Source: Escherichia coli (lineage in GTDB: Bacteria; Pseudomonadota; Gammaproteobacteria; Enterobacterales; Enterobacteriaceae). Taken from it: a DNA stretch of 64,000 nt. The DNA is taken from the NCBI RefSeq assembly GCF_044324875.1, contig NZ_CP172185.1. One strand, written 5' to 3'. Below are positions 16,107 to 17,283 of the stretch, one piece after another. The notes under the pieces were generated by a model. It saw only the letters and a program-made list of their open reading frames with translations. It had not been told where the DNA came from and ran no database searches. How positions within the stretch are numbered: the first letter of the stretch is position 1; each line of letters starts with the position of its first letter. The position numbers and the translations under genes were made by a program.

Positions 16107-16140
16107 GATGCTCTCCCAAAGATGAAATCTCTTGCTGGCA

Positions 16141-16157
16141 TTACAAGAATCATGCCA
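16141..16157 (-). promoter_or_regulatory. Candidate sigma54 (-24/-12) promoter of pspG
   Basis: Minus-strand TGGCATGATTCTTGTAA (GG at -24, TTGT at -12, similar to the pspA promoter), about 40 bp upstream of the pspG ATG. Confidence 0.6.
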
Positions 16158-16239
16158 AAAATAATCTGTTGATTTAACAGCAAAACGCCCCGCGACGGTG
16201 CGCAGGGCGTGGTGAATTTGACTATTTTTTGGTGAAAAG

Positions 16240-17283
16240 TTAACGCTTATCCGCCACCAGTTTGAGCGCGTGTTCCAGCACATTAATGTCTGCACCCGCT
16301 TTATGGGCATTTTCACTTAAATAACGCCGCCACTGCCGCGCGCCAGGAATACCCTGGAACAAGCCCAGCATATGCCGGGTAATATGGCCAAGATACGTCC
16401 CCTGGCTGAGTTCACGCTCAATGTACGGATACATGGCGCGCACTACCGCCACCGGATCGGCATCGGTATCCGAGGAACCAAAGATCTCTCGGTCTACCGC
16501 CGCCAGAATACCCGGATTCTGATACGCTTCGCGCCCGACCATCACGCCATCCATATGTTGCAAATGCGCTTTAGCCTCTTCCAGCGACTTGATACCACCG
16601 TTAATCGACATTGTCAGATGCGGAAAGTCACGCTTCAGTTGATACACACGCGGATAATCGAGCGGCGGGATTTCACGGTTTTCTTTCGGGCTTAACCCCG
16701 AAAGCCAGGCTTTACGTGCGTGGATGATGAACATCTCACACTCGCCTTTGCCGGAAACGGTGTTGATGAAATCGCAGAGAAATTCATAGCTGTCCTGATC
16801 ATCGATGCCAATACGCGTTTTCACCGTCACCGGAATCGACACCACATCGCGCATCGCTTTCACGCAGTCGGCAACCAGCTGCGCATTACCCATCAGACAC
16901 GCCCCAAACATGCCGTTCTGCACCCGGTCAGACGGGCAGCCGACATTCAGGTTGATCTCATCATATCCGCGCGCTTCTGCCAGCTTTGCACACTGCGCCA
17001 GCGCTGCCGGATCGCTACCGCCCAGTTGCAATGCTACCGGATGTTCTTCTTCACTGTGCGCCAGGTAATCACCTTTACCGTGAATAATCGCCCCTGTAGT
17101 CACCATTTCGGTATACAGCAACGTATTGCGGGAAAGCAGACGCAAGAAATAGCGGCAATGTCTGTCCGTCCAGTCGAGCATTGGTGCAACACTAAACCGA
17201 CCACTCCAGTGAACGTCAGTTTTTTCAGGCATTGCGCTGGTTTGGTTGATTTTTTGCATTTCAGAATTACCGTGCATTTTCAA
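16240..17283 (-). CDS. dusA: tRNA-dihydrouridine synthase A (start may be the third codon, ATG at 17277)
   Basis: Translation M(K)[44 protein letters not shown]...; Dus family TIM-barrel. Confidence 0.9.

Follow-up and report, generated by a model that had tools for sequence, protein, structure and literature searches.

The sigma-54 promoter of the phage-shock gene pspG in Escherichia coli: core, upstream sites and a putative dusA terminator between them

The regulon of PspF is small and comprises only pspA-E and pspG (Huvet et al., PMC3041696; Flores-Kim and Darwin, PMC3467454), and the transcriptional Psp response is confined to the pspA operon and pspG (PMC3467454). PspF binds to upstream activating sites (UASs) of both the pspA and the pspG promoter, and IHF assists PspF at the psp promoters (Mehta et al., 2013, PMC3709507). 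The pspA promoter has two UASs and is induced 100-fold, the pspG promoter has one UAS and is induced about 20-fold, and when PpspG is deleted, basal expression of pspA rises by a factor of more than 3 (PMC3709507). PspF dependence of pspG and its induction by inner-membrane stress are described in the passages on pspG of four reports (PMC3709507; PMC3041696; PMC3467454; PMC4591121), all of which refer to Lloyd et al. (2004). This primary source for PpspG (J Biol Chem 279:55707) enters here as it is cited in PMC3041696 and PMC3844500. Genome-wide studies of sigma-54 have also recorded the promoter. An E. coli ChIP-seq study lists a site, OS40, with pspG as its gene, a fold-above-threshold value of 15, a "distance 25" to the gene and the flag C, which denotes experimental confirmation in EcoCyc (PMC4591121). 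Only five genes with upstream intergenic sigma-54 sites rose upon sigma-54 overexpression in that study, pspA and pspG among them, and regulation of both was assigned to PspF (PMC4591121). In Salmonella Typhimurium, sigma-54 was found by ChIP-chip at pspG (STM4244), where the core reads TGGCATGATTTTTGTAAG (Samuels et al., 2013, PMC3844500), and gSELEX with the RpoN holoenzyme gave a peak in the E. coli dusA-pspG spacer in vitro (Shimada et al., 2021, PMC8743547). The order of enhancer, IHF bend and -24/-12 core found at pspG is also that of the IHF-dependent sigma-54 promoters glnHp2, Pu and nifH (PMC2709558). The pspG promoter departs from these systems in its activator PspF, which lacks a sensory domain and is regulated in trans by PspA, and in an IHF core unusually near to the -24 element, the distance between the start of this core and TGGCA being 17 nt.

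Here we describe the dusA-pspG spacer in a window of 64,000 nucleotides of an E. coli genome, the whole stretch of DNA that was analysed. We put the probability at about 95% that the feature in this spacer is PpspG, from which sigma-54 RNA polymerase transcribes the phage-shock gene pspG under control of PspF and IHF. Motifs, scores, conservation, spacing, covariation and the pspA-type site were observed directly, while sigma-54 occupancy, dependence on PspF and IHF and control by PspA are taken from the literature. The core promoter is the already characterised one and is known, not new, and its recognition adds nothing to the established Psp regulon. It is useful as a calibration case, in which a real sigma-54 promoter was recognised from sequence alone. 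The modest new points are comparative, namely an arrangement of enhancer, terminator, IHF site and core that is strictly fixed across Enterobacteriaceae, a probable terminator in the loop that is backed by covariation, the T at -12 and an additional half-site. These could steer mutational work on basal and induced levels of PspF promoters.

The dusA-pspG spacer and its sigma-54 core

The locus is part of the E. coli chromosome with the gene order dnaB-qorA-pspG-dusA. The dusA open reading frame (17283..16240, minus strand, 347 aa), identified by the dusA annotation in E. coli genomes, ends with a TAA stop codon at 16242..16240, where the 134-nt dusA-pspG spacer starts. On the same strand follows pspG (16106..15864, ATG at 16106..16104), which encodes a PF09583 protein of 80 aa, and qorA and dnaB lie beyond it. 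The interval 16107..16240 thus consists of the 133 intergenic nucleotides and the final base of the dusA stop codon. A 601-bp query (15800-16400 of the window) matches 5,424 of 5,426 complete E. coli genomes, in which pspG and dusA are annotated at this place. Over this query the identity to most E. coli genomes is 95-99%, and the window stems from a lineage different from K-12. Within the spacer only three positions differ from MG1655 (K-12), none of them in conserved motif columns, and therefore experiments made in K-12 apply to this spacer. K-12 PpspG is the same locus with an identical 17-mer core, from which the window differs in nothing functional. Two further elements nearby were noted. 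The pspG 3' UTR contains, at 15697..15807 (minus strand), the sRNA PspH (b4758 in MG1655) in a form near-identical to that of K-12, and the end of the PspH sequence is the bidirectional pspG/qorA terminator (15728..15706). PspH is a sponge of the sRNA Spf and may have its own promoter (Melamed et al., 2016); it may be an additional target of transcription from the sigma-54 promoter of pspG. An Rfam scan of 15500..16500 gave nothing over threshold. Between dusA and zur lies an AT-rich ORF of 318 aa (17641..18597, minus strand), whose counterpart in an identical E. coli genome carries the annotation DUF2713 family protein; it is unrelated to the pspG promoter.

The sigma-54 core promoter TTGGCATGATTCTTGTA occupies 16158..16142 on the minus strand and is identified by its sequence, by weight matrices, by conservation among orthologues and by identity to the 17-mer of the ChIP-seq site OS40 (PMC4591121). 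Its GG at 16156-16155 corresponds to -25/-24 and its GT at 16144-16143 to -13/-12. A sequence-only reading of the window had quoted the string TGGCATGATTCTTGTAA (16157..16141, minus strand), which lies within the dusA-pspG intergenic region, and had claimed GG and TTGT in -24/-12 spacing. This is borne out, since the core reads TGGCAT-GATTC-TTGTA, with the canonical 10 bp between GG and GT of the TGGCAY-N5-TTGCW consensus. On careful alignment the spacing and the GG fit the sigma-54 pattern, and GT stands in place of the consensus GC at -13/-12, the same as in pspA. The proposed distance of about 40 bp to the pspG ATG is a fair approximation, the -12 T (16143) being 37 nt away from it. Resemblance to the pspA promoter had also been suggested and is real: the pspA core TTGGCACGCAAATTGTA is identical to TTGGCATGATTCTTGTA in 12 of 17 positions and both carry TTGTA with the unusual T at -12.

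The window contains two matches to the bare pattern TGGCA-N6-TTGY where 1.8 are expected, so the pattern is no rarer than chance. As the IUPAC pattern is uninformative on its own, sigma-54 weight matrices were built from the 135 ChIP-seq sites of Bonocora et al. (2015, PMC4591121), always with pspG excluded. With the matrix from the 134 remaining ChIP-seq sites the core scores 15.0 bits and ranks second of the 127,968 window positions; with a matrix from 17 EcoCyc-confirmed promoters it scores 17.3 bits and ranks first. A third matrix, from 40 intergenic sites without pspA and pspG, gives 16.4 bits, compared to a training median of 15.9, and here T instead of the consensus C at -12 costs about 3 bits. 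The scan that had been proposed as a check on the promoter therefore places it first or second in the window. For such a match on the correct strand of the 134-nt spacer the chance expectation is about 0.002 (2 per 127,968 positions). The sole other window position that scores as high (15.3 bits) is CTGGCAGCCTTTTTGCA at 38029..38045 (minus strand), which is located inside yjbH in sense orientation and is absent from the 135 high-stringency ChIP-seq sites.

Transcription is predicted to start at a G at 16131 (minus strand), 25 nt before the pspG ATG, by the rule of Bonocora et al. (2015, PMC4591121), which sets a distance of 19 bp between the motif centre and the start downstream of it. A Shine-Dalgarno sequence, GGGAGAG, follows at 16117..16111 (minus strand), and GGGAGAG or GGAGAG precedes the ATG in most orthologues. 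No sigma-70 promoter candidate for pspG was found on the minus strand of the dusA-pspG spacer.

Predicted IHF site and PspF-type enhancer

The region upstream of the core had been described as an AT-rich tract that could hold IHF and PspF sites. Sites of both types are present, and the IHF core indeed lies in an AT-rich tract next to -24, but the PspF-type site is found beyond a GC-rich hairpin. The IHF core AATCAACAGATTA (16174..16162, minus strand, centre at about -37) matches the consensus WATCAANNNNTTR without a mismatch, so that a predicted IHF site is located between enhancer and core promoter. Across 80 orthologous loci the core has at most one mismatch to the consensus in 65, and its start is fixed at 17-18 nt before TGGCA.

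The PspF-type enhancer is a 15-bp imperfect dyad, TAGTCAAATTCACCA, at 16224..16210 (minus strand, centre at about -86), recognised by its conservation and its match to the pspA sites. Its pattern T.GT.AA.TT..C.A, which matches itself on both strands, is invariant or nearly so in the 80 loci, and in 78 of them the dyad centre is 60-61 nt away from TGGCA. When a 15-mer matrix built from pspG orthologues only was run over the 2.5-kb pspF-pspA locus of MG1655 (L001), it picked exactly two sites, each on both strands, at 1413-1427 (13.6 bits) and 1433-1447 (13.1 bits), with the next best at 6.9 bits; among shuffled sequences only about 5% reach even one score of 11.9. If the pspA start is taken to be 41 nt before its ATG, these dyads lie at -126..-112 and -106..-92 and are presumably UAS II and UAS I of pspA (Jovanovic and Dworkin). 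Matrix and pattern search agree that a UAS of the pspA type is present at pspG. We read 16224..16210 as the probable PspF site, its exact boundaries being estimated from motif comparison and from the positions of the pspA UASs.

Just downstream of the dusA stop codon a single half-site, TTCACCA (16236..16230, minus strand), stands out by near-invariant columns (consensus TTTCAC[CT]AAAA). In all 80 loci the distance from its start to the dyad centre is 19 nt, which gives the same 20-bp repeat as between UAS II and UAS I of pspA. A second full PspF dyad at 16244..16230 was considered and rejected, as only the TTCACCA half matches the dyad matrix. The half-site is probably an auxiliary PspF contact at about -102.

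The pspA and pspG promoters are therefore alike in using sigma-54, in having an IHF-type site just upstream of -24 and in their PspF-type dyads with a 20-bp repeat. They differ in their dyads, of which pspA carries two complete ones (about -119 and -99) and pspG one (about -86) together with a half-site. Accordingly, the pspG enhancer is about 13 or 33 bp closer to its promoter, depending on which pspA site is chosen. The enhancer loop of pspG holds a terminator hairpin, while that of pspA holds the divergent pspF promoter region. When the spacers upstream of pspA and pspG were aligned with MAFFT, GGCGTTTTGCTGTTAAATC was paired with GGCATGTTGCTGTTGATTC of pspA. This pairing was rejected as coincidence, since the stretch of GGCGTTTTGCTGTTAAATC is in other genera no more than the T-run of the terminator and GCTGTT lacks conservation.

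Identity of the activator has to be considered at this point. The spacer strings TTCACCA and GCACC resemble the NtrC half-site. They could indicate that the promoter is a real sigma-54 promoter with NtrC, or another enhancer-binding protein, as its main activator instead of PspF, and NtrC alone gave an in vitro gSELEX peak of 58% in the dusA-pspG spacer (Shimada et al., 2021, PMC8743547). We hold this to be very improbable. The conserved 15-bp dyad is the same type of site as the two pspA enhancer sites, PspF binding or PspF-dependent induction of pspG is reported in PMC3709507, PMC4591121, PMC3041696 and PMC3467454, and the portions of the literature consulted describe no in vivo effect of NtrC on pspG. 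The gSELEX peak may reflect cross-recognition of TTCACCA and GCACC by a related helix-turn-helix domain, and PspF stays the favoured activator.

A probable dusA terminator inside the enhancer loop

Between the dyad and the IHF site the minus strand encodes an inverted repeat that was also detected by a terminator scan (16210..16176). A GC-rich stem of 10 bp is formed by 16210..16201 and 16194..16185, with a loop of 6 nt, and is followed by TTTTGCTGTT with its TTTT. The RNA fold of the hairpin has -23 kcal/mol (z = -3.6). In the alignment of orthologous loci 96.6% of the cells are paired and compensatory changes are found in 9 of the 10 pairs; none of 500 shuffles is as good, and slid controls are paired to only 36-60%. 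Because such covariation is the signature of an RNA hairpin, we read 16210..16185 together with its T-run as the probable dusA intrinsic terminator, whose efficiency is inferred. A protein-binding palindrome at 16210..16185 was rejected as an alternative, since the stem sequence changes freely while its pairing is restored by compensation, and the loop varies without constraint. The stem base adjoins the PspF dyad, and the terminator T-run forms the 5' A/T-rich flank of the IHF core. The hairpin separates the PspF enhancer from the IHF site, which puts the enhancer in the dusA 3' UTR.

This arrangement bears on how pspG is transcribed. The element could be a chance or non-productive sigma-54 site, with pspG expressed by read-through from the sigma-70 promoter of dusA, given that both genes lie on the same strand only 134 nt apart, that the bare promoter pattern occurs at chance frequency and that many E. 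coli sigma-54 sites are bound without a known transcription output (PMC4591121). A conserved, covarying terminator between dusA and pspG speaks against read-through, as does the presence of promoter, IHF and UAS motifs at fixed spacing in 80 loci. Furthermore, the promoter is confirmed in EcoCyc, pspG is regulated by PspF and goes up on sigma-54 overexpression (PMC4591121), and the Psp response confined to pspA-E and pspG leaves dusA out (PMC3467454). We regard the reading of a chance or non-productive site with read-through from dusA as very improbable and already largely refuted. The proposal of the sequence-only reading that pspG belongs to the phage-shock regulon independently of dusA is, in turn, supported by the covarying terminator and by the restriction of the Psp response to the pspA operon and pspG (PMC3467454).

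On the basis of the motifs described here and of published work on the Psp system, activation of PpspG can be pictured as follows. Sigma-54 RNA polymerase would bind TTGGCATGATTCTTGTA and form a closed complex that is unable to open alone. The AAA+ enhancer-binding protein PspF would occupy the dyad TAGTCAAATTCACCA at about -86, probably helped by the half-site 20 bp upstream. IHF on AATCAACAGATTA would bend the spacer of about 60 bp, with the bend around -40 to -45, so that PspF could touch sigma-54, and ATP hydrolysis by PspF would open the promoter. Transcripts would then start near 16131 and carry a 25-nt leader with the GGGAGAG ribosome-binding site. In unstressed cells PspA would keep PspF inactive, and inner-membrane stress would free PspF, leading to induction of pspG together with pspABCDE. 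The dusA terminator, placed between the enhancer and the IHF site, would insulate pspG from dusA transcription.

A further idea is that the two PspF-dependent promoters form a distinct sigma-54 subclass with T at -12 and that the dusA terminator takes part in the function of the enhancer loop of pspG. It is tentative, and in our estimate rather doubtful. Of the 80 pspG orthologues 77 have a T at -12, as does pspA in both E. coli and Salmonella, and among 42 validated intergenic sites of E. coli GT at this position is limited to three, namely pspA, pspG and one other. If the subclass is real, the T might loosen the -12 "lock" and so give the basal expression needed by the PspA-PspF feedback. 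As the stem abuts the dyad and the T-run is the A/T arm of the IHF site, dusA transcription and its termination could modulate occupancy by PspF or IHF. On this view the conserved half-site would turn the pspG enhancer into "one and a half" sites, compared to the single UAS of the literature.

Conservation across orthologous loci

Conservation was assessed in 80 pspG loci from different Enterobacteriaceae species that were retrieved by PspG alignment. In 77 of the 80 loci a search with TGG[CT]A-N6-NTG[CT] found the -24/-12 pattern in canonical spacing, located 48-85 nt upstream of the ATG. In a separate alignment of 130 nt around the promoter, TGGCA[CT] is present at -24 in 78 of the 80 rows and TTGTA at -12 in 77. 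Upstream of it the IHF core, the stem-loop, the dyad and the half-site are kept with almost no indels. The 5' leader and the hairpin loop vary freely across the same loci and hence serve as an internal neutral control for this conservation. Citrobacter werkmanii (L034) has TGTCAT for TGGCAT at -24 and scores 9.4 bits, with the other regulatory parts intact; this change of GG to GT should cripple the promoter, or it may stem from a sequencing error. The locus of Salmonella enterica subsp. diarizonae (L046) is the sole one with TTGCT at -12. Together with subsp. arizonae (L021) it has the same layout of UAS, hairpin and IHF site as E. coli, while the leaders of both are about 34 nt longer than that of E. 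coli and contain an extra GC-rich hairpin. The inverted repeat in these leaders, CCCGGTAAGCGC..GCCGCCGGG, looks like a REP-type insertion.

More distant PspG homologues, with 39-57% identity, were collected by an exhaustive representative search and contig look-ups. A Dus gene precedes them in every case where the contig reaches far enough upstream. Among the four distinct sequences at this distance, three (L083, L086 and L087/L088) have one or two dyads of the type TGGT..A.TT..ACCA, a hairpin with a T-run and a GG-N10-G[CT] element. In L084/L085 the half-site, an IHF-like core and the promoter are kept, and there is no clear hairpin. The L087/L088 lineage has GC, as in the consensus, at -12 and a pair of full dyads, and for this reason the enterobacterial state, with one dyad plus a half-site and GT at -12, looks derived. 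The 5' end of dusA is well known as a hotspot of integration, and in two of the distant lineages phage-type integrase genes are located directly upstream of dusA, at 1-214 in L085 and at 1-152 in L088. A prophage at dusA with pspG just downstream has likewise been described in Salinivibrio (PMC8537503).
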